Positions 1-26,015 of a stretch of DNA of 64,000 nt are shown one piece after another. A program made the position numbers and the translations under genes. The notes below the pieces were generated by a model that saw nothing but the letters and a program-made list of their open reading frames with translations, was not told where the DNA came from and did no database searches. The stretch lies in NCBI RefSeq assembly GCF_056712565.1, contig NZ_CM160072.1; one strand, given 5' to 3'. The first letter of the stretch is position 1; each line of letters opens with the position of its first letter.

Positions 1-564
1 ATGACTTTCCCGCAGCTCCGCATCCGGATAGAGTTGGAGCATTAACGAATCTTTGCTCACCACTTTGCCATTATTGCGTATCAACGTTTCCATAATGGTG
101 TATTCGAACGCGGTCAGTTTGATCACTTCGTCATTAATAGATAATTCACGGCGGGAGAGATCAACCTGAAACGGTGGTAGCGAAATGACCTGTGAAGCCA
201 GACCACTATTACGCCGCATTAATGCCTGCATTCGCGCCATCACCTCTTCAATATGAAACGGTTTAGTCACGTAATCATCAGCACCGGCACTTAATACTTC
301 GACTTTGTCCTGCCAGCTCTCACGGGCGGTTAATACCAGAATCGGCAGTGAAACATCATTGCTACGCCAGCGGCGAATCAGTGACAGACCATCCTCGTCA
401 GGCAATCCGAGATCGACAATCGCAATATCAGGTAAATGTTCATTGAGATAATAATCGGCTTCTTTGGCATCTTCTGCGTCATCGACCTGATGACCAGCAT
501 CCTGTATCTGAACTTTAAGATGGTGACGTAACAACGCATTGTCTTCAACAACCAGTACGCGCAT
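1..564 (-). CDS. phoP: Response regulator PhoP, N-terminal ~188 codons (3' end lies outside the window)
   Basis: Reverse translation from ATG at 562-564 gives [36 protein letters not shown]..., which I recognise as PhoP; gene runs off the left edge. Confidence 0.9.
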
Positions 565-732: not shown

Positions 733-2106
<1,374 letters not shown>

Positions 2107-2748
2107 TCACAACTCCGGGGTTAAATGAGCAAGAATTTGTTTTGCCTGAGTGGTCAGGCGATTACGAGAAAACATCAGTTGCAGACGACCGCCGCCGACC
2201 TGGTGCCAGAGCACGGCGGCGCGAATGCCTGCCAGCAGGGTTGCGCGAACTTTCGCCTGCACCTGTGGGCTTTGCAGTACAGCAGGGGAACCAGTGACCT
2301 GAATGCGCGGGCCAAGCGGGCTGATAACATCAACATAGATGGCAGCCATCGCGCTCATCAGCGTTTCGGACTGTAAATCGAAGTGTTCGAGCTGGCGTTG
2401 CAGGCCGTTGATCCGGTTGCCCAGAGTGTCGAGCGCACCTTTCGCTGAGGAGAGTTTGCGCTCAAGCACCATCAGACTGAGTGTGTAGCGGGTTAATTCG
2501 GCGTTTAAGCCCTGGCGACTGCTGGCATTGAGTACGCCGAGCAAGGTTTCCAGCCCGACGCGCAGGTTGGCTTCGCTACCGCCAAAAACCGCCAGCGTTG
2601 AGCTGGGGTTCATATCGATAATACTGTTGAGTGAGACGTGTAGCGCATCGCCATCACAATGCCCCTGGTGAGCGAGTTGTTGCACCAGGCGTGCCGACTG
2701 ACAAATACCGGCAAGGGCGAGGGTGATGTCATAGTAATTCTTTGCCAC
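2107..2748 (-). CDS. hflD: High-frequency lysogenization protein HflD
   Basis: ORF (MNV)[31 protein letters not shown]...; start probably the GTG two codons inside the tracked ORF. Confidence 0.85.
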
Positions 2749-18833: not shown

Positions 18834-19274
18834 ATGAAAAAACTAACCTTTGAAATTCGATCTCCGGCACATCAGCAAAACGCTATTCACGCAGTACAGC
18901 AAATCCTTCCAGACCCAACCAAACCAATCGTAGTAACCATTCAGGAACGCAACCGCAGCTTAGACCAAAACAGGAAGCTATGGGCCTGCTTAGGTGACGT
19001 CTCTCGTCAGGTTGAATGGCATGGTCGCTGGCTGGATGCAGAAAGCTGGAAGTGTGTGTTTACCGCAGCATTAAAGCAGCAGGATGTTGTTCCTAACCTT
19101 GCCGGGAATGGCTTTGTGGTAATAGGCCAGTCAACCAGCAGGATGCGTGTAAGCGAATTTGCGGAGCTATTAGAGCTTATACAGGCATTCGGTACAGAGC
19201 GTGGCGTTAAGTGGTCAGACGAAGCGCGACTGGCTCTCGAATGGAAAGCGCGATGGGGAGATCGGGCTGCATGA
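18834..19274 (+). CDS. ninB: NinB recombination protein
   Basis: 146 aa from MKKLTFEIRSPAHQQNAIHAVQQILPDPTKPIVVTIQERNRSLDQNRKLWA... Confidence 0.88.
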   Translation: MKKLTFEIRSPAHQQNAIHAVQQILPDPTKPIVVTIQERNRSLDQNRKLWACLGDVSRQVEWHGRWLDAESWKCVFTAALKQQDVVPNLAGNGFVVIGQSTSRMRVSEFAELLELIQAFGTERGVKWSDEARLALEWKARWGDRAA

Positions 19275-19798
19275 CTATCAAATCAAATACGCCAGCACAC
19301 GACAAGGACTGCTGGCAAACGCCGCTTTGGCTTTTTGATGCACTGGATATTGAGTTTGGATTCTGGCTGGATTCGGCAGCGAGCGACAAAAATGCTCTGT
19401 GCGCTCACTGGCTAACTGAGGACGACGACGCGCTCAATTCTGAGTGGGTAAGCCACGGTGCAATCTGGAATAACCCACCGTACAGCAATATCAGGCCGTG
19501 GGTGGAAAAAGCCGCTGAGCAGTGTATACAACAGCGACAGACGGTAGTGATGCTTGTGCCAGAGGATATGTCTGTCGGATGGTTCAGCAAGGCTCTGGAG
19601 AGTGTTGACGAAGTTCGTATTATCACTGATGGACGGATTAATTTTATCGAACCATCGACAGGGCTGGAGAAGAAGGGAAACAGCAAAGGCTCCATGCTGC
19701 TGATTTGGCGACCGTTCATCAGTCCTCGACGGATGTTTACTACCGTATCCAAAGCGGCATTGATGGCGATCGGGCAGGGCGTCAGGAGGGCTGCATGA
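19271..19798 (+). CDS. Phage orphan DNA N6-adenine methyltransferase
   Basis: 175 aa from [25 protein letters not shown]...; contains the NPPY catalytic motif (IWNNPPYSN); start overlaps ninB stop (ATGA); occupies the lambda ninC slot. Confidence 0.8.
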
Positions 19799-19971
19799 GA
19801 CGACAGCGACGAAGCATCACCGACATAATCTGCGAAAACTGCAAATACCTTCCAACGAAACGCTCCAGAAATAAACGCAAGCTAATCCCAAAAGAATCTG
19901 ACGTAAAAACCTTCAATTACACAGCCCACCTGTGGGATATCCGGTGGCTAAGATATCGTGCGAGGAAATGA
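19795..19971 (+). CDS. ninE: NinE
   Basis: 58 aa [58 protein letters not shown]. Confidence 0.85.
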
Positions 19972-20315
19972 CAATGGATTATTCACAGTTAAGTGATTTT
20001 GAAATTAACAGAATGGTAGGAGACATAATTTTTAAAGGCCTTTGGGCAAGTAAACCGGAAACATCAGGGAATAACACCAACAAATGGTATTACGGAAATG
20101 CTGATACAACTTTTGAGCCATTAAATCATTTGCCTGACTACTGCAATGATCCGAGCGCTTCATGGCCGATTATTGAGAAATACAGGATTTCTATCTTAGA
20201 CCAGTTAACTGAATGGTGTGTGGATGCAAAAGGCGTAAGCCCAATATTTGATACCAGACCTCTCCGCGCCGCCATGATTGTCTTTCTCCTGATGCAGGAG
20301 GCCAATAATGCTTAG
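19968..20315 (+). CDS. Hypothetical nin-region protein
   Basis: 115 aa from [24 protein letters not shown]...; start overlaps ninE stop (ATGA); no recognised domain. Confidence 0.5.
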
Positions 20316-20525
20316 CCCATCTCAATCCCTTCAATACCTGAAAGAAAGCATAGAGCGGGCTTCAATGTGCACAGAGTGGATTCTATCTAGGTTTAGCGCA
20401 TACAGAAGATTGCCGGTAAAGGGCATGCCAAGCAAGTCGATGCTGCATATGCAAAAGAATGCGCGCTGGAAGGTATGGCGAGAACACAGGTTATGTGGCT
20501 GAAAGAGGGGGTTATTAAGGCGTGA
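20308..20525 (+). pseudogene. Mosaic remnant: NinF-like N-terminus joined to YbcO-like C-terminus in another frame
   Basis: Frame 1 starts [18 protein letters not shown] (NinF-like) then diverges; a second frame ends ...[29 protein letters not shown] which matches the C-terminus I recall for DLP12 YbcO. Confidence 0.5.
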
Positions 20526-20884
20526 ATACCTACAGCATCACATTACCCTGGCCTCCGAGCAATAATCGCTATTACCGCCATAATCGCGGGCGCACGCACG
20601 TCAGCGCAGAGGGGCAGGCATACCGCGATAACGTCGCCCGAATCATTAAAAACGCAATGCTGGATATCGGCCTGGCTATGCCTGTGAAAATCCGCATTGA
20701 GTGCCACATGCCGGATCGCCGTCGCCGTGACCTGGATAATCTGCAAAAAGCCGCTTTTGACGCACTCACTAAAGCAGGTTTCTGGCTGGATGATGCTCAG
20801 GTCGTTGATTACCGCGTTGTGAAGATGCCTGTTACCAAAGGTGGGAGGCTGGAACTGACCATCACCGAAATGGGGAATGAATGA
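20522..20884 (+). CDS. rusA: Holliday junction resolvase RusA
   Basis: 120 aa; [48 protein letters not shown]... Confidence 0.92.
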
Positions 20885-21021
20885 TGTTTGAGTTTAATAT
20901 GGCAGAACTTCTTCGCCACCGCTGGGGGCGTCTGCGCTTATATCGTTTCCTCGGTTCTGTTTTGACCGATTACCGAATACTGAAGAATTACGCCAAAACC
21001 CTGACAGGAACAGGAGTATGA
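20881..21021 (+). CDS. ylcG: YlcG-like small protein
   Basis: 46 aa [46 protein letters not shown]; below ORF-track cutoff; same position as ylcG after rusA in DLP12. Confidence 0.7.
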
Positions 21022-21106
21022 AGTCAGAGATAACAATCAACTAATACTGTTTTGTTGATTTTTGCTTGTAATTGGCGTTCTGGTCTGATTTTTGTGGAGT
21101 AAGTTG

Positions 21107-21490
21107 ATGCGTGATATTCAGATGGTTCTTGAGCGTTGGGGTGCGTGGGCGGCTAATAATCATGAAGATGTGACCTGGTCGTCCATTGCCGCCGGTTTTA
21201 AGGGATTAATTCCTTCAAAAGTAAAATCTCGCCCGCAATGTTGTGACGATGACGCGATGATCATTTGCGGGTGCATGGCCCGTCTGAAAAAGAACAACAG
21301 CGATTTACACGATTTATTAGTAGATTATTATGTATGTGGTATGACATTCATGTCACTGGCAAGTAAGCATTGCTGCTCGGATGGTTATATCGGGAAAAGG
21401 TTACAGAAGGCTGAGGGCATAATTGAAGGGATGTTAATGGCATTAGATATCCGGTTAGATATGGATATCGTTGCTAATAATTCTAATTGA
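21107..21490 (+). CDS. quuD: Late gene antiterminator Q (QuuD/phage 82-type)
   Basis: 127 aa from [60 protein letters not shown]...; GGAG RBS. Confidence 0.88.
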
Positions 21491-21626
21491 TATGCAATTG
21501 TTTACTAAAAGTTATTAAAAATGGGGCGTGGAAACGCCCCCAAAATAAAGGGTAATATATAACAGAAGGTTTATATAGTAAGAAGCAAGGTAGTGCTTCT
21601 AAAGGAAGTGGCTTGAGGGCTCCACT

Positions 21627-21669
21627 TATATGTTGCGGAGGCAAAGCCTCCCGCAACATATCTTTTTCG
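21627..21669. terminator. tR'-like terminator downstream of Q; also 10 bp past the porin stop
   Basis: Imperfect hairpin ATATGTTGCGGAGGCAAAGCCTCCCGCAACATAT followed by CTTTTTCG on the plus strand. Confidence 0.65.
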
Positions 21670-21678
21670 TAAGTCAGA

Positions 21679-22761
21679 TTAGAACTGATAAACCAGACCT
21701 ACAGCGACGATGTCGTCGGTATCAATACCAGCTGTTTTGGTAAACTTACTATCGTCAATTAAGTTGATTTTGTAATCAACAAAAGTGGACATGTTTTTAT
21801 TAAAGTAGTAAGTAGCACCGACATCGACATACTTGACTAAGTCTCGGTCACCATGAACACCAAGGTCTTTACCTTTTGACTGAAGGTAAGCAACAGATGG
21901 ACGCAGACCGAAGTCAAACTGATATTGTGCTACTGCTTCAAAGTTTTGTGCTTTGTTTGCAATATGGTTATTACCAAAAACGGTCATATTCTGAGTTTCA
22001 GAATATGTGGTAGCCAGATAGATATTGTTCGCATCATATTTCAGGCCTGCAGCCCATACTTCCGCATTTTTGCCGGAGGCATTGAATTTGCTCTTACCAT
22101 AGGCGACCTGACCGTCAGTGCGATCTGATTTAGCATAGGTTGCACCCACGCCGAATCCTTCATACTCATAAGTAGTGGAGAAACCGAAACCATCACCATT
22201 GGCTTCAGTTACGTCAGTGCGGTCATTTTTACCCTGATACTGAGCAGCAAAGTTCAGGCCATCGACCAGACCAAAGAAGTCGTTGTTACGATAAGTTGCA
22301 ACACCAGTAGTGCGACCAGTCATGAACACATCTGTTTGGGTCCAGGTATCACCACCGAATTCTGGCAGAACGTCAGTCCACGCACCGATGTCGTATGCTA
22401 CACCGTAGTTACGGCCGTAATCGATTGAGCCGTAATCACCAAATTTCAGGCCTGCAAATGCAAGACGGGTTTTGTCTTTGGAAGAACCTTGAGATTCAGC
22501 ACGGTTGCCTTTGAATTCATATTCCCACTGACCGAAACCAGTCAGTTGATCGTTGATTTGGGTTTCACCTTTGAAGCCAAGACGGGCATAAGTAGTATCA
22601 CCATCATCTGCATCATTAGAGGAGAAGTAGTGCTTGGCATTAACTTTCCCGTATAGATCCAGCTTGTTACTGTCTTTATTATAAATTTCAGCTGCCTGAG
22701 CAGACATCGCCATCAGTACTGATGCAGCTACAGCAGAAATTGCCACTGTTAATTTTTTCAT
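21679..22761 (-). CDS. nmpC: OmpC/NmpC-family outer membrane porin (prophage moron)
   Basis: Signal peptide [24 protein letters not shown]-terminal ...VGLVYQF beta-barrel terminus, porin-like body; inserted between Q and lysis genes on the opposite strand. Confidence 0.88.
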
Positions 22762-23187
22762 TGTACGCCCTTTTTTTGAACTATTATTAAAAAATGATGT
22801 CACTGCGCGATAAATATTCATCTAATCAATGTGATTATTTCAAGATGTAAGTTTTAGTTTCTCATTTAATTTGTGAAGTAGATCTCTATTTTTATCTGAA
22901 CCTTTTCTATCTAATCCTATTCATGGCTCTTGTCTGAACAAAAATAAATCTATTAGCTAATTTATATTAATGGCACTTATTTATAAGTGCTCTATAATTC
23001 TTTAGCTTAATTTAAACAAACTAAAAATAACATTGGAAATTATTAACTGGTTATTTGTTGAAGTTTTCTTATGCATTTGTGGTGGTGTTTTGAACACTCG
23101 GTGGCATTCTCACAAATATCATTTAGTAGTTTACGTACGTAAAAAATTGGTTATGCTGTTAAGAGTGGTTACTTCGTCACACAGCTT

Positions 23188-23220
23188 AAACCCGCCGTCG
23201 AGCGGGTTTTTCCATTTTTT
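23188..23220 (+). terminator. Orphan rho-independent terminator in porin-holin intergenic region
   Basis: AAACCCGCCGTCGAGCGGGTTTTTCCATTTTTT. Confidence 0.5.
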
Positions 23221-23349
23221 GAGTCTCGATATTAGCTGATAACCCAATACCTGAGTTATTCACTGACTCCGAATCTGTTACGTTTCTGCCTTTATTGCGA
23301 TACGTAGTATCCCCTTAATTTACACCCGCTTTGTCTGCGAGGTGGGGTT

Positions 23350-23565
23350 ATGAAATCCATGGATAAGTTAACAACGGGTGTCGCCTATGGTACCTCAGCA
23401 GGTAGTGCCGGGTACTGGTTTTTACAGTTGCTCGATAAAGTCACGCCCTCACAGTGGGCGGCAATAGGTGTGCTGGGTAGCCTGGTATTTGGCCTGCTGA
23501 CGTACCTGACAAACCTTTATTTCAAGATTAAAGAAGATAAGCGCAAGGCTGCGAGAGGTGAATAA
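23350..23565 (+). CDS. S: Class II pinholin (phage 21 S-type), dual-start
   Basis: 71 aa [71 protein letters not shown] with two TM segments. Confidence 0.9.
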
Positions 23566-24062
23566 TGCCTCCATCATTACGAAAAGCCGTTGCTGCTGCT
23601 ATTGGTGGCGGAGCAATTGCTATAGCATCAGTGTTAATCACTGGCCCAAGTGGTAACGATGGTCTGGAAGGTGTCAGCTACATACCATACAAAGATATTG
23701 TTGGTGTATGGACTGTATGTCACGGGCATACAGGAAAAGACATCATGCTCGGTAAAACGTATACCAAAGCAGAATGCAAAGCCCTCCTGAATAAAGACCT
23801 TGCCACGGTCGCCAGACAAATTAACCCGTACATCAAAGTCGATATACCGGAAACAATGCGCGGCGCTCTTTACTCATTCGTTTACAACGTGGGTGCTGGC
23901 AATTTCAGAACATCGACGCTTCTTCGCAAAATAAACCAGGGCGATATCAAAGGCGCATGTGATCAGCTACGTCGCTGGACATATGCTGGCGGTAAGCAAT
24001 GGAAAGGTCTCATGACTCGTCGTGAGATTGAGCGTGAAATCTGTTTGTGGGGTCAGCAATGA
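23565..24062 (+). CDS. R: SAR endolysin (T4 lysozyme-like, phage 21 R-type)
   Basis: 165 aa; N-terminal signal-anchor-release segment [20 protein letters not shown] followed by lysozyme fold. Confidence 0.88.
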
Positions 24063-24520
24063 ACAGAGTAACCGCGATTATCTCCGCTCTGGTTATCTGC
24101 ATCATCGTCTGCCTGTCATGGGCTGTTAATCATTACCGTGATAACGCCATTACCTACAAAGCCCAGCGCGACAAAAATGCCAGAGAACTGACGCTGGCGA
24201 ACGCGGTAATTACTGACATACAGATGCGTCAGCGTGATGTTGCTGCGCTCGATGCAAAATACACGAAGGAGTTAGCTGATGCGAAAGCTGAAAATGATGC
24301 TCTGCGTGATGATGTTGCCGCTGGTCGTCGTCGGTTGCACATCAAAGCAGTCTGTCAGTCAGTGCGTGAAGCCACCACCGCCTCCGGCGTGGATAATGCA
24401 GCCTCCCCCCGACTGGCAGACACCGCTGAACGGGATTATTTCACCCTCAGAGAGAGGCTGATCACTATGCAAAAACAACTGGAAGGAACCCAGAAGTATA
24501 TTAATGAGCAGTGCAGATAG
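24059..24520 (+). CDS. Rz: i-spanin Rz
   Basis: 153 aa from [19 protein letters not shown]... with N-terminal TM and coiled-coil region; overlaps endolysin stop. Confidence 0.85.
24279..24461 (+). CDS. Rz1: o-spanin Rz1 lipoprotein, embedded in Rz in the +1 frame
   Basis: 60 aa; lipobox LPLVVVGC and proline-rich stretch [15 protein letters not shown]. Confidence 0.85.
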
Positions 24521-24551
24521 AGCTGCCCATATCGATGGGCAACTCATGCAA

Positions 24552-24845
24552 TTATTGTGAGCAATACACACGCGCTTCCAGCGGAGTATAAATGCCTAAA
24601 GTAATAAAACCGAGCAATCCATTTACGAATGTTTGCTGGGTTTCTGTTTTAACAACATTTTCTGCACCACCACAAATTTTTGCTGCATCGACAGTTTTCT
24701 TCTGCCCAATTCCCGAAACGAAGAAATGATGGGTGATGGTTTCCTTTGGTGTTACTGCTGTAGGTTTGTTTCCAACAGTAAACGTCTGTTGAGCACATCC
24801 TGTAATAAGCATTGCCAGAGCGGCAGAAAACAACATTTTTTTCAT
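24552..24845 (-). CDS. bor: Bor lipoprotein (serum resistance, lysogenic conversion)
   Basis: 97 aa from MKKMLFSAALAMLITGCAQQTFTVGNKPTAVTPKETITHHFFVSGIGQKKTVDAAKICGG... Confidence 0.9.
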   Translation of the reverse strand: MKKMLFSAALAMLITGCAQQTFTVGNKPTAVTPKETITHHFFVSGIGQKKTVDAAKICGGAENVVKTETQQTFVNGLLGFITLGIYTPLEARVYCSQ

Positions 24846-25325
24846 CTTATTATCCTGCATTGTTAAAAACGGCAGAATCCTATGTGACAACAATTAAACG
24901 ATAGTTAAATGGATTGATGAAAATTAAAACTACACAGGTGGGCTCAGACTATTGGAGGAAGTTGGGGACACTCAGAATCCTGTGGAATGAAATAAACCGG
25001 TCTATCCGTCCATTACCCTTTTAGCTGCGCTGTATCGTCGCCGTATTCCCGCATTAACCATGACCGTAGCCCGACGGGGAATTCCTTCTGCGTGAGTGTG
25101 CGGGAATAATTAAAAACGATGCACACCGGGTTTTTACCGCGTTAATGATTCGCGGGTTTATCCCGGTGCGATGGTGGAAGAAACAGGAAGCTGTATTACA
25201 GAAAGTGCTACTACTGTATCCCGATGCGATGTATGTAATGTGAGTCAGATAATGGCACAGGATGTGGTGATGTGGCAGTCTGGAACACAGGATATATTGT
25301 CAGAATAAGACCCGTAGGAATAAAA

Positions 25326-25652
25326 ATGAAAAGACGCCTTTTACTACTTTTTCTGTTATCTGTCCTGGCAGTGGGATGCTCGCAGCAAAAAGCTGATGAG
25401 CCCCGGCAATTAGTGACGGTGTATCCACGATATCCGGAATATGCTGCAGCAAATTATATCAAGGGGCTGGTTGAGGTTAAGTTCGATATTGGTGCTGATG
25501 GGACTGTGACACGGATCGTTTTTCTCCGCTCAGAGCCTCATAATTTGTTTCGTGATGAAGTGGTGAAGGCCATGGCGAAATGGCGATTTGAAAAGAATCG
25601 CCCCTGTCAGGGAGTGAAGAGACAATTTATCTTTACGCCGTCACGTCCTTGA
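25326..25652 (+). CDS. Putative lipoprotein with TonB C-terminal-like domain
   Basis: 108 aa from MKRRLLLLFLLSVLAVGCSQ (lipobox); YPRYPEYAAANYIKGLVEVKFDIGADGTVTRIV resembles TonB C-terminal domain. Confidence 0.55.
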   Translation: MKRRLLLLFLLSVLAVGCSQQKADEPRQLVTVYPRYPEYAAANYIKGLVEVKFDIGADGTVTRIVFLRSEPHNLFRDEVVKAMAKWRFEKNRPCQGVKRQFIFTPSRP

Positions 25653-26015
25653 TGCTTCCAGGTAGAGAGGGGCTGGAAGCAGGAGAAAAATGAAAGAGCC
25701 AGCGGTTATATTTTTGTCATGGCTGACGAGGAATGATGGAAGAAGGCGTTGTATGCCACACAACGCCTCACTGTTCATTTCTTCTTTTTCTCTGGTGGAA
25801 CCCGATGAATAAGAGTTGCACTGGTTTCCGATGAGATGGCGATATACTCGGGCAAAGTATGCTGGCAGTTTTCCAACTGGTCAAAAATACCTGCTCTCGT
25901 CTGTTGCAATGCCTGCAGCATGCGGCGGCAATGCGCCTTGCTTTTACTAACCATCTTTCCTTCCTCTATCAGTCGCTGCGTGAACTCATCATGGAATACC
26001 AGGTAAATGCGGATG

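Follow-up and report, generated by a model that had tools for sequence, protein, structure and literature searches.

Gene content of the porin cassette and its surroundings

The porin gene lies antisense between the genes encoding a Q antiterminator and an S21-type holin of a lambdoid prophage, within a window of 64,000 nt (the whole stretch of DNA that was analysed) that matches E. coli ATCC 11775 at 100% identity. There, the prophage extends from an integrase adjoining icd to tail genes, and it is apparently complete. The Q gene (21107..21490, plus strand) encodes a QuuD-type polypeptide of 127 amino acids (PF06530, E=8e-54) with 81% identity to Q of an Stx2 phage over amino acids 1-120 and a distant match to the solved Q21 structures (E=4e-8). 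The first late gene (23350..23565, plus strand) encodes an S21-type pinholin (PF04971, E=2e-35) with starts giving 71 and 68 amino acids; both antiholin and holin starts are annotated in the phage 434B record. It is followed by a gene for a SAR endolysin (23565..24062, plus strand; PF00959, E=1e-45). In the ATCC 11775 record the three genes are labelled quuD, essD and rrrD, respectively. At a coverage of at least 80%, the 2-kb module was detected in 2,464 of 5,426 complete E. coli genomes as well as in 36 phage records, among them isolated phages at 99.9% identity.

The porin gene (21679..22761, minus strand) encodes a 360-amino-acid polypeptide of the lc/nmpC family; the open reading frame as such is 21679..22821 (380 amino acids), and the ATG at 22761 is the start used by RefSeq and in the record of the phage PA-2 lc gene. 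A Pfam search gave a full-length match to Porin_1 (PF00267, E=2e-151, 504.5 bits against a cut-off of 23.7, profile positions 1-337), the NCBIfam OmpC subfamily model scored 521 bits against a cut-off of 484, and solved OmpC structures were matched with E=6e-137. No frameshift was detected in the open reading frame, the L3 constriction-loop motif PEFGG is present (LPEFGGD) and the C-terminus reads ...GLVYQF with an aromatic last residue, in agreement with a preliminary description of this DNA in which the porin had been judged intact. That description had also reported a porin with its own signal peptide antisense between Q and the holin, and this was borne out by the Pfam match, the ORF coordinates and comparison with Lc of PA-2: the first 60 residues are those of Lc, including the 23-amino-acid signal peptide annotated there, which is encoded here at 22693..22761 (minus strand). 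Based on 63% identity to K-12 OmpC, the protein is probably a 16-stranded trimeric beta-barrel channel. Identity was 91% both to Lc and to the IS5-free NmpC of DLP12, and the exact protein sequence occurs on more than 1000 contigs under the name 'outer membrane porin protein LC'. Judged by these comparisons, it is a long-known lc/nmpC-type gene of lambda-like E. coli phages and is not new.

The lc gene of PA-2 (porin Lc, 'protein 2', J02580) resembles the gene in the window in position, antisense orientation, the phage 21-type lysis genes downstream and the spacer on the Q side. The upstream DNA of the two is 93% identical, including the annotated CRP site, the 3' spacer is 93.7% identical, and the signal peptide and first 160 residues of the proteins are the same. 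Within the gene, synonymous sites in the 3' 600 nt have reached saturation in the comparison with lc (pS about 0.7), and the window porin is thus a mosaic allele. It is five residues shorter than Lc, and the replacements are grouped in five short segments that are likely to be surface loops. The dN/dS ratio relative to lc was about 0.09, and by this measure the coding sequence is under strong purifying selection. DLP12 of K-12 and the window share the gene order rusA, ylcG, quuD, porin (antisense), essD, rrrD, rzpD and bor. In K-12, however, IS5 has inserted into nmpC (after codon 346 as annotated for phage 434B), whereas the window copy is intact, and DLP12 is defective and located elsewhere in the chromosome (record position about 0.57 Mb) whereas the window prophage looks complete and adjoins icd.

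Upstream of the porin gene lies an AT-rich regulatory region (22762..23125, minus strand) with 93% identity to the upstream regions of PA-2 and DLP12. Its G+C content is 27.2%, compared with 39.6% for the cassette and 48.6% for the whole window. The AT-richness noted in the preliminary description is thus real, but since the last 224 bp before the holin have 42.9% G+C, the very AT-rich stretch measures about 360 bp by composition and not the ~530 bp given there. The region contains a conserved CRP-type site, ATTTGTGAAGTAGATCTCTAT (22869..22889, minus strand), which is annotated in the PA-2 record J02580; a sigma-70 consensus scan found no minus-strand promoter upstream of the porin. The cassette has its own predicted terminator (see below), a deviant base composition and a location between two elements that adjoin each other in related phages, which are characteristics of a moron. 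Its earlier classification as a lysogenic-conversion moron is supported at the level of class, the gene being a member of the lc/nmpC family and lying between Q and the lysis genes in what appears to be an antisense unit of its own.

The porin 3' untranslated region and the hairpin downstream of Q

The hairpin between Q and the porin (21628..21667 on the plus strand, counting the five T residues that follow it) was examined in the sequence and in folds. Its arms at 21628..21642 and 21646..21661 form 15 bp with one bulge around an AAA loop, followed by CTTTTTCG. The preliminary description was correct about its presence, but had placed it 10 bp from the porin stop codon (21679..21681), where 17 nt were measured. 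The proposal that it marks the 3' end of a porin-derived sRNA was not sustained: on the porin strand the hairpin is followed by AAGUGGAG, without a U-tract, and the porin transcript has a predicted intrinsic terminator of its own further downstream. Bidirectional termination, also suggested, is unlikely because the T-run is present on one side only, that of the plus strand.

The porin-strand terminator was identified by a terminator scan (21513..21540, minus strand). It has a stem at 21540..21523 of seven pairs, six of them G-C, with a loop of 4, and then AUUUUUAAUA, read as AUUUUU in the scan. With this terminator as the porin's own, the 3' untranslated region corresponds to a predicted IpeX sRNA of about 167-170 nt (approximately 21682..21513, minus strand) with the hairpin at its 5' end. 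The hairpin is therefore modelled as the first stem-loop of IpeX on the minus strand, and on the plus strand it may act as a terminator-like stop for transcription leaving Q.

In the literature, IpeX is described as a 167-nt RNA that is part of a phage porin transcript, is processed and controls OmpC; repression of both OmpC and OmpF is stated, and ipeX transcripts have been quantified by qRT-PCR in 20 clinical isolates. The predicted length from stop codon to terminator agrees with the published 167 nt. The spacer between Q and the porin showed 95% identity over 303 aligned columns to the ipeX region of DLP12 (the quuD-nmpC spacer), so that the comparison with a DLP12 3'UTR-derived sRNA made in the preliminary description was the right lead; for the 188-nt spacer, identity in K-12 strains was 93.7%. 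Folding of the 191-nt spacer in the porin sense gave -58.9 kcal/mol, compared with -34.1 +/- 4.3 kcal/mol for shuffled sequences (z = -5.8, 0 of 200 as good).

Among 24 haplotypes of the 3' untranslated region, two allele classes were distinguished, with few changes in stems and variation mostly in loops. Both alleles keep the 15 pairs and single bulge of the hairpin, one shift of the bulge leaves the number of pairs at 15, and one A-to-G substitution creates a G-U pair. The terminator stem is invariant in 22 of the 24 haplotypes, and the differences between the two main alleles there lie in the loop. This pattern is compatible with the predicted structure, although too weak to serve as proof of it. 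A search of 19000..26000 against Rfam (E<=1) returned no match, which means that there is no curated family for IpeX or for the PR' RNA. The PGAP annotation contains nothing in the IpeX region, and the K-12 record NC_000913.3 has no ipeX feature.

Predicted position of the late promoter and the slot between Q and PR'

The position of the late promoter was assigned by homology with Stx phages. The window segment 23127..23211 matches the DNA at the Stx-phage Q stop codon and, in phage SfII, the DNA immediately preceding S, with 78% identity over 85 nt for the placement of PR'. The predicted promoter on the plus strand consists of TTTACG, a 16-nt spacer and TATGCT (hexamers 23130..23157) with an A at 23164 as predicted start. 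The reliability of the reference promoter was assessed in Sakai Sp5, where the start implied by the homologous promoter (L209:746) agrees exactly with two published positions, the tR' end at +258 and the RNase E site at +173; the internal distances were compared because the Sakai coordinates of Sy et al. refer to NC_002695.1 and the record used here is version.2. A tR'-type terminator, AAACCCGCCGTCGAGCGGGTTT followed by TTCCATTTTTT (23188..23220, plus strand), was found by terminator scan and folding as the sole terminator-like site between PR' and the holin. It is conserved in PA-2, DLP12, SfII and Stx phages, and the 62-nt fold around it contains a small hairpin (z = -1.4). Since the Q protein is 81% identical to Stx Q, and the mapped Stx PR' is homologous to 23130..23157, PR' and tR' are placed downstream of the porin cassette, giving a predicted order of PR', intrinsic terminator and holin at 23350, all downstream of the cognate Q.

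The PR'-tR' region of Stx phages, the source of StxS, is conserved in the window as regards the hexamers and their spacing, the first hairpin and the initial transcribed sequence TAAGAGTGGTTAC. In Stx phages, StxS extends to +258, so that the homologue of the tR' hairpin is evidently read through in part there. In the window, no further terminator stands between the first hairpin and the holin, and hence there is no StxS-like 3' segment. The arrangement around Q also differs: the Stx-phage PR' overlaps the stop codon of Q, its transcripts reaching a second terminator after 258 nt, whereas in the window a 1.6-kb antisense cassette separates Q from PR'. At its left junction, alignment with the Stx2 Q-PR' junction and comparison with 23126..23140 revealed a remnant copy of the PR' -35 region, TTGTTTACTAAAAG (21498..21512, plus strand), without a -10 element, from which we infer the left boundary of the cassette.

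A different layout follows from the tR' position given to the hairpin in the preliminary description, with PR' directly after Q, the hairpin at 21628..21661 as tR' (perhaps bidirectional) and Q-modified polymerase crossing the porin in antisense to reach the holin. It draws on the T5 that follows the hairpin on the plus strand at a location like that of lambda tR', on the -10-like hexamers TAATAT, TATAAC and TATAGT at 21553..21578 and on the remnant -35-like TTTACT at 21501..21506. No promoter passed the scan in 21491-21627, the interval between Q and the hairpin, and the hexamers are part of a segment resembling the ompC leader (see below); as a candidate PR' with pause element they were rejected, homology with Stx PR' lying elsewhere. 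The hairpin lacks a U-tract on the minus strand, and the homologue of the promoter mapped for the 81%-identical Stx Q is at 23130..23157, downstream of the porin, so that the hairpin is not in the tR' position. The same order was seen in other phages: among the 98 loci listed, 34 (SfII and 33 others) have different antisense cargo after Q, followed in turn by the PR' core, while Q directly adjoins PR' in Stx phages and at 14 of the 98. The layout with PR' directly after Q is therefore very improbable, and the homology indicates that late promoter and terminator had been misplaced. At least 16 other cassettes of antisense cargo occupy the Q-PR' slot in related phages, and several of them match models of anti-phage defence systems.

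Taken together, it is highly probable that the classical lc/nmpC-ipeX cassette of lambdoid coliphages is present here, located between Q and its cognate PR'. The cassette would be ~1.6 kb in size (about 21513..23125), antisense to the late genes, and would comprise the AT-rich regulatory region with its CRP-type site, a gene for a 360-amino-acid general-diffusion porin with a Sec signal peptide and a structured 3' untranslated region of ~167 nt. With PR' downstream of the porin, late transcription would never cross it. Drawing on the literature, the cassette would be transcribed in the lysogen from its own promoter, the porin would be inserted in the outer membrane and the 3' untranslated region would be released as IpeX, lowering synthesis of OmpC and OmpF. 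The net effect would be an exchange of host porins for the phage porin, with altered permeability and removal of the OmpC receptor for related phages, that is, lysogenic conversion and superinfection exclusion. Expression of the cassette, RNA processing and the mechanism of repression are to this extent inferred.

An intact porin gene is no proof of expression, because an intact nmpC in E. coli B was reportedly found to be quiescent (work by Prilipov from 1998). The porin could likewise be intact but silent in the lysogen, as in laboratory strains, and the cassette of little weight for the host phenotype. Upstream DNA of 27% G+C is typical of H-NS-silenced DNA, and K-12 nmpC is inactive through IS5. 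Such silence is nevertheless unlikely given the strong purifying selection and the occurrence of the identical protein on so many contigs and in viable phages. Lc of PA-2 is also said to have been expressed in lysogens, according to literature of the 1970s-80s, IpeX is treated as functional in the literature and its transcripts were measurable in the clinical isolates mentioned above.

Complementarity of IpeX to the ompC leader

The plus strand at 21543..21571 resembles the ompC leader, and the corresponding segment of predicted IpeX (nt 112-140, minus strand) is complementary to positions -31..-7 of ompC, including the Shine-Dalgarno sequence. Pairing was assessed by windowed duplexes, opening energies, cofolding and decoy leaders, as full-length RNAduplex gave meaningless end-to-end duplexes. 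The predicted duplex has 15 contiguous pairs and nine more. A run of 15 pairs was reached by 11 of 2000 dinucleotide shuffles, in which the longest run averaged 10. The net interaction energy after opening costs was -16.0 kcal/mol; being located between stable hairpins, the pairing segment requires little opening energy. The duplex was contained in the minimum-energy cofold structure, with a ddG of -18.3 kcal/mol compared with -15.7 kcal/mol for the best decoy (0 of 181 decoys as good). Hybridisation energy by itself was only moderately unusual, 6 of 403 shuffles reaching it (p ~0.015). Of the 24 haplotypes, 22 show no change in IpeX nt 112-140, and 4,681 of 5,370 genomes have an ompC leader conserved to 99% or more; with both partners nearly invariant, there was no covariation to examine. 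For ompF, a 10-bp seed only was found.

On these results, direct repression of ompC is the most likely mode of action, with the predicted pairing of IpeX nt 112-140 covering the Shine-Dalgarno sequence in the ompC leader. Alternatively, the decrease in OmpC and OmpF might be an indirect effect of IpeX, which could for instance titrate a protein factor or perturb envelope-stress signalling, and the complementarity to ompC would then be coincidental. The abstract of the original 2006 IpeX paper reportedly notes a failure to detect complementarity with the ompC 5'UTR. A review describes a mechanism not reliant solely on complementarity, and AU-rich sequences pair readily, as is apparent from the shuffle mean and the hybridisation p-value given above. 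Against coincidence, the duplex spans the ribosome-binding site of the one mRNA known as a target, surpasses all decoy leaders and involves a segment that is cheap to open. It also falls within the 5'UTR, which the 2006 work reportedly found to be required for the effect. The short ompF seed is in line with Hfq reportedly being needed for the effect on ompF but not for that on ompC. Indirect action is, in our assessment, possible rather than probable.

If the predicted imperfect leader duplex of ~24 bp at or near the ribosome-binding site is real, IpeX would be similar to MicC and MicF, chromosomal antisense sRNAs that block translation of ompC and ompF. It is unlike these in being phage-borne and derived from a 3' untranslated region, and in that its effect on ompC is reported to be Hfq-independent. 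It is quite possible, if somewhat short of an even chance, that both parts of a joint proposal hold, namely that IpeX is a true antisense RNA, acting at ompC -31..-7 and through a neighbouring 10-nt seed at the ompF ribosome-binding site, and that the Q-PR' junction serves as a dedicated cargo slot.

The finding of the preliminary description re-identifies the textbook lc/nmpC porin and IpeX sRNA, and in itself adds nothing new. Its value is in annotation: across about 2,500 complete E. coli genomes, RefSeq names the gene 'ompC' and has no IpeX feature. For a widespread Q type, correct placement of PR' and tR' affects how the regulation of late genes and lysis cassettes is read in DLP12-type prophages. 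The by-products of the analysis are a concrete base-pairing model for IpeX and ompC, and evidence for the Q-PR' junction as a hotspot of antisense cargo that includes candidate defence systems. If true, antisense pairing would explain how IpeX represses host porins and why its effect on ompC needs no Hfq, and the porin-IpeX unit would count among the members of a lambdoid-phage hotspot for defence and exclusion.

The porin cassette and its relatives

The porin gene lies on the minus strand between a Q antiterminator gene (21107..21490, plus strand; PF06530, E=8e-54) and an S21-type holin gene (23350..23565, plus strand), the latter followed by genes for a SAR-type lysozyme, Rz/Rz1 and a Bor/Iss lipoprotein, as identified by ORF listing, Pfam and annotation. 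The porin ORF spans 21679..22821 (Porin_1, E=2e-151), and the start at 22761, as in RefSeq and in the record of lc, the porin gene of lambdoid phage PA-2, results in a polypeptide of 360 amino acids. Residues 1-60 are the same as in PA-2 Lc, including the 23-amino-acid signal peptide annotated for Lc; the PEFGG loop motif is present and the C-terminus is YQF. The ORF listing and Pfam results, with no frameshift, agreed with the preliminary description of an intact porin gene with a signal peptide, antisense between Q and the holin. The Bor/Iss-family lipoprotein gene, annotated as iss in E. coli ATCC 11775, is also antisense and lies just after Rz (24552..24893, minus strand; PF06291, E=2e-30); within this late region it represents a second moron of the classical lysogenic-conversion kind.

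The porin protein has 91% identity to PA-2 Lc, 91% to NmpC of the K-12 prophage DLP12 with IS5 removed, and 63% to K-12 OmpC. Gene order in DLP12 is the same as in the window, but nmpC is interrupted by IS5. Upstream of the porin start (22762..23125) the G+C content is 27.2%, compared with 48.6% across the window, and that of the final 224 bp ahead of the holin is 42.9%. The regulatory DNA upstream of the porin is 93% identical to that of PA-2 and of DLP12; it includes, at 22869..22889, the CRP-type site annotated for PA-2 in 1986. Every defining feature that can be tested by sequence was found, assigning the feature to the Lc/NmpC porin cassette carrying an IpeX homologue, an sRNA derived from the porin 3'UTR. 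The cassette also has the features of a moron, except that no promoter of its own was located. As submitted it is already known, with PA-2 lc dating from the 1980s and IpeX from 2006.

The 2-kb module (21400..23400) is 100% identical to that of ATCC 11775, where it lies inside a lambda-like prophage extending from an integrase next to icd to the tail genes. At a coverage of at least 80% it occurs in 2,464 of the 5,426 complete E. coli genomes, and 36 phage records also contain it, some of them from isolated phages with 99.9% identity. The exact porin sequence occurs on more than 1000 contigs, in some sources as 'outer membrane porin protein LC'; most records name the porin 'ompC' or 'OmpD', labels that can mislead gene-content analyses. 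A separate case is the laboratory phage 434B (OL657227.1, 4018..7609), in which a DLP12-type Q, IS5-interrupted nmpC and lysis genes form a segment that is not homologous to 434 and was apparently acquired from K-12 through recombination; upstream of Q, 434B has in addition an antisense LpxR-like gene.

Comparison with lc gave a dN/dS of ~0.09, indicating purifying selection on the porin gene. The gene is a mosaic relative to lc, with the first ~480 nt near-identical and the last ~600 nt synonymously saturated: pS was 0.04-0.15 in codons 1-160 (almost identical DNA), ~0.7 in codons 161-280 and too high to compute beyond codon 280, while both flanks return to ~93-95% identity. This pattern points to recombination involving a porin allele that is old and divergent.

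Late promoter and terminator

When the DNA immediately preceding the holin was searched, 23127..23211 proved similar to the sequence at the Q stop codon of hundreds of Stx phages, and also to the segment directly ahead of S in Shigella phage SfII; Q of the window and of an Stx2 phage share 81% identity across 120 residues. [quoted passage not shown] The Sakai Sp5 promoter (locus L209) consists of TTTACG, a 16-nt spacer and TATCAT, with an implied start at L209:746; counted from there, the tR' T-run ends at +258 and position +173 coincides exactly with GU|AUU. Based on Stx homology, the PR' homologue on the plus strand of the window comprises TTTACG (23130..23135), a 16-nt spacer and TATGCT (23152..23157), with a predicted start at A 23164. 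Between this promoter and the holin, the terminator scan and fold showed a single terminator-like site, a conserved tR'-type hairpin with T-run (23188..23220). At the left edge of the cassette, a -35 region remnant, TTGTTTACTAAAAG, is found at 21498..21511 without a -10 element. This predicted arrangement places the porin cassette (~21513..23125) between Q and PR', uncrossed by late transcription. The hairpin at 21628..21661, which had been proposed as tR', is not that terminator, as the PR' homologue and terminator lie downstream of the porin; for plus-strand transcription we infer a possible role in halting unmodified polymerase as it leaves Q.

The second 'CRP binding site' of the 1986 PA-2 record corresponds to 23164..23184, that is, +1..+21 of the predicted PR' transcript. 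Its GTGGTTAC...CAC.CAG pattern is kept also in porin-less Stx phages and SfII, and a late-promoter or Q-loading function therefore explains its conservation better than porin regulation. Stx phages also have a terminator-like hairpin with U7 only ~26-50 nt downstream of the mapped start site of PR' (763..790 in Sakai Sp5; 2563..2587 in the Stx phage locus L088). The published precursor of StxS, the sRNA of the PR'-tR' unit, extends to +258, and the early hairpin may reflect either partial termination or another role, for example, pausing or Q loading. Within the AT-rich porin upstream region, a plus-strand promoter-like site (22970..22998; ATGGCA, 17-nt spacer, TATAAT; 10/12 matches) is directed toward PR' and the holin and could be fortuitous, given the AT-rich sequence.

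The ipeX region and its predicted pairing with ompC

With 95% identity to its DLP12 counterpart, the spacer between Q and the porin (21491..21678) represents the ipeX region. IpeX is a 167-nt DLP12 RNA made from the phage porin promoter within the porin transcript and then processed, which controls OmpC; its repression of ompC and ompF is stated in other papers. The terminator scan identified a sole canonical intrinsic terminator on the porin strand, GGGGCGUUUCCACGCCCC followed by AUUUUU (21540..21523), and the distance from stop codon to U-tract, 163-167 nt, agrees with the published IpeX size. The hairpin described by the porin stop was present (arms 21628..21642 and 21646..21661; 15 pairs, one bulge; followed by CTTTTTCG), at 17 nt from the stop codon rather than 10 bp. 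On the porin strand it is followed by AAGUGGAG, with no U-tract, and is thus the first stem-loop of the predicted IpeX and not, as had been suggested, the 3' end of an sRNA, which the terminator at 21540..21523 would provide. The porin-sense spacer RNA is much more structured than shuffled sequences (z = -5.8). Rfam gave no match for IpeX, and RefSeq/PGAP annotation had 'none' under match in every listed genome of 2,509 E. coli.

IpeX nt 112-126 (AACCUUCUGUUAUAU) are complementary to ompC -21..-7 (AUAUAACAGAGGGUU) over 15 consecutive pairs, including one G-U, covering the Shine-Dalgarno sequence; past a small internal loop, CCUUUAUUU pairs with AAAUAAAGG. The ompC-leader look-alike is the plus strand at 21543..21577. 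A run of at least 15 pairs occurred in 11 of 2000 dinucleotide shuffles. The hybridisation energy of -26.7 kcal/mol, reached by 6 of 403 shuffles, is offset by opening costs of 4.6 and 6.1 to a net -16.0. The minimum-energy RNAcofold dimer forms the duplex and keeps the stable hairpins of IpeX, with a ddG of -18.3; 181 decoy Shine-Dalgarno-plus-ATG contexts from the window averaged -6.5 (sd 3.2), the best reaching -15.7. For ompF, a 10-bp seed (IpeX 126-135 with ompF -14..-5) gave a ddG of -12.5, reached by 9/181 decoys, and the phage porin's own leader was unremarkable (-8.4; 46/181). Among 24 spacer haplotypes, 22 show no change in the pairing segment, and 4,681 of 5,370 genomes have an ompC leader with conservation of 99% or more, near-invariance that makes a covariation test impossible. 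The 2006 IpeX abstract reportedly described a requirement for the ompC 5'UTR and Hfq independence for ompC, not for ompF, which would fit direct pairing; it is also said to report no complementarity, in conflict with the computed duplex, and the pairing would have been either overlooked or judged insufficient. We consider direct IpeX-ompC pairing moderately probable.

Cargo between Q and PR'

IMG/VR was scanned for the conserved PR' core, and the spacing between it and the closest Q homologue upstream was measured. Among the matches listed, 98 loci had both; as rough frequencies, Q and PR' were contiguous in 14, separated by the porin cassette in 50 and by other inserts in 34, the last comprising at least 16 architectures among these matches, all but one antisense (loci L089, L093, L096, L099, L109, L114, L123, L139, L142, L143, L150, L161, L172, L195, L203 and L208). 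The interval from QuuD/Stx-type Q genes to the conserved PR' core (21491..23125 in the window) is a variable cargo slot. Several slot cassettes matched known or candidate defence models: a KAP NTPase (PDC-S20, E=4e-177), a RelA/SpoT-domain protein (PDC-S33, E=2e-114), PD-Lambda-1 (E=2e-89), PDC-M53A in SfII, and a C5 methyltransferase with an OLD/AAA_15-like ATPase; the PADLOC models matched were PDC-S20, PDC-S33, PD-Lambda-1, PDC-M53A and a HEC-04-like one. A limited literature check found no description of the Q-PR' slot, which is no proof of novelty. Modest leads open to testing are the positions assigned to PR' and tR' with this type of Q, the IpeX-ompC duplex and the Q-PR' cargo slot.
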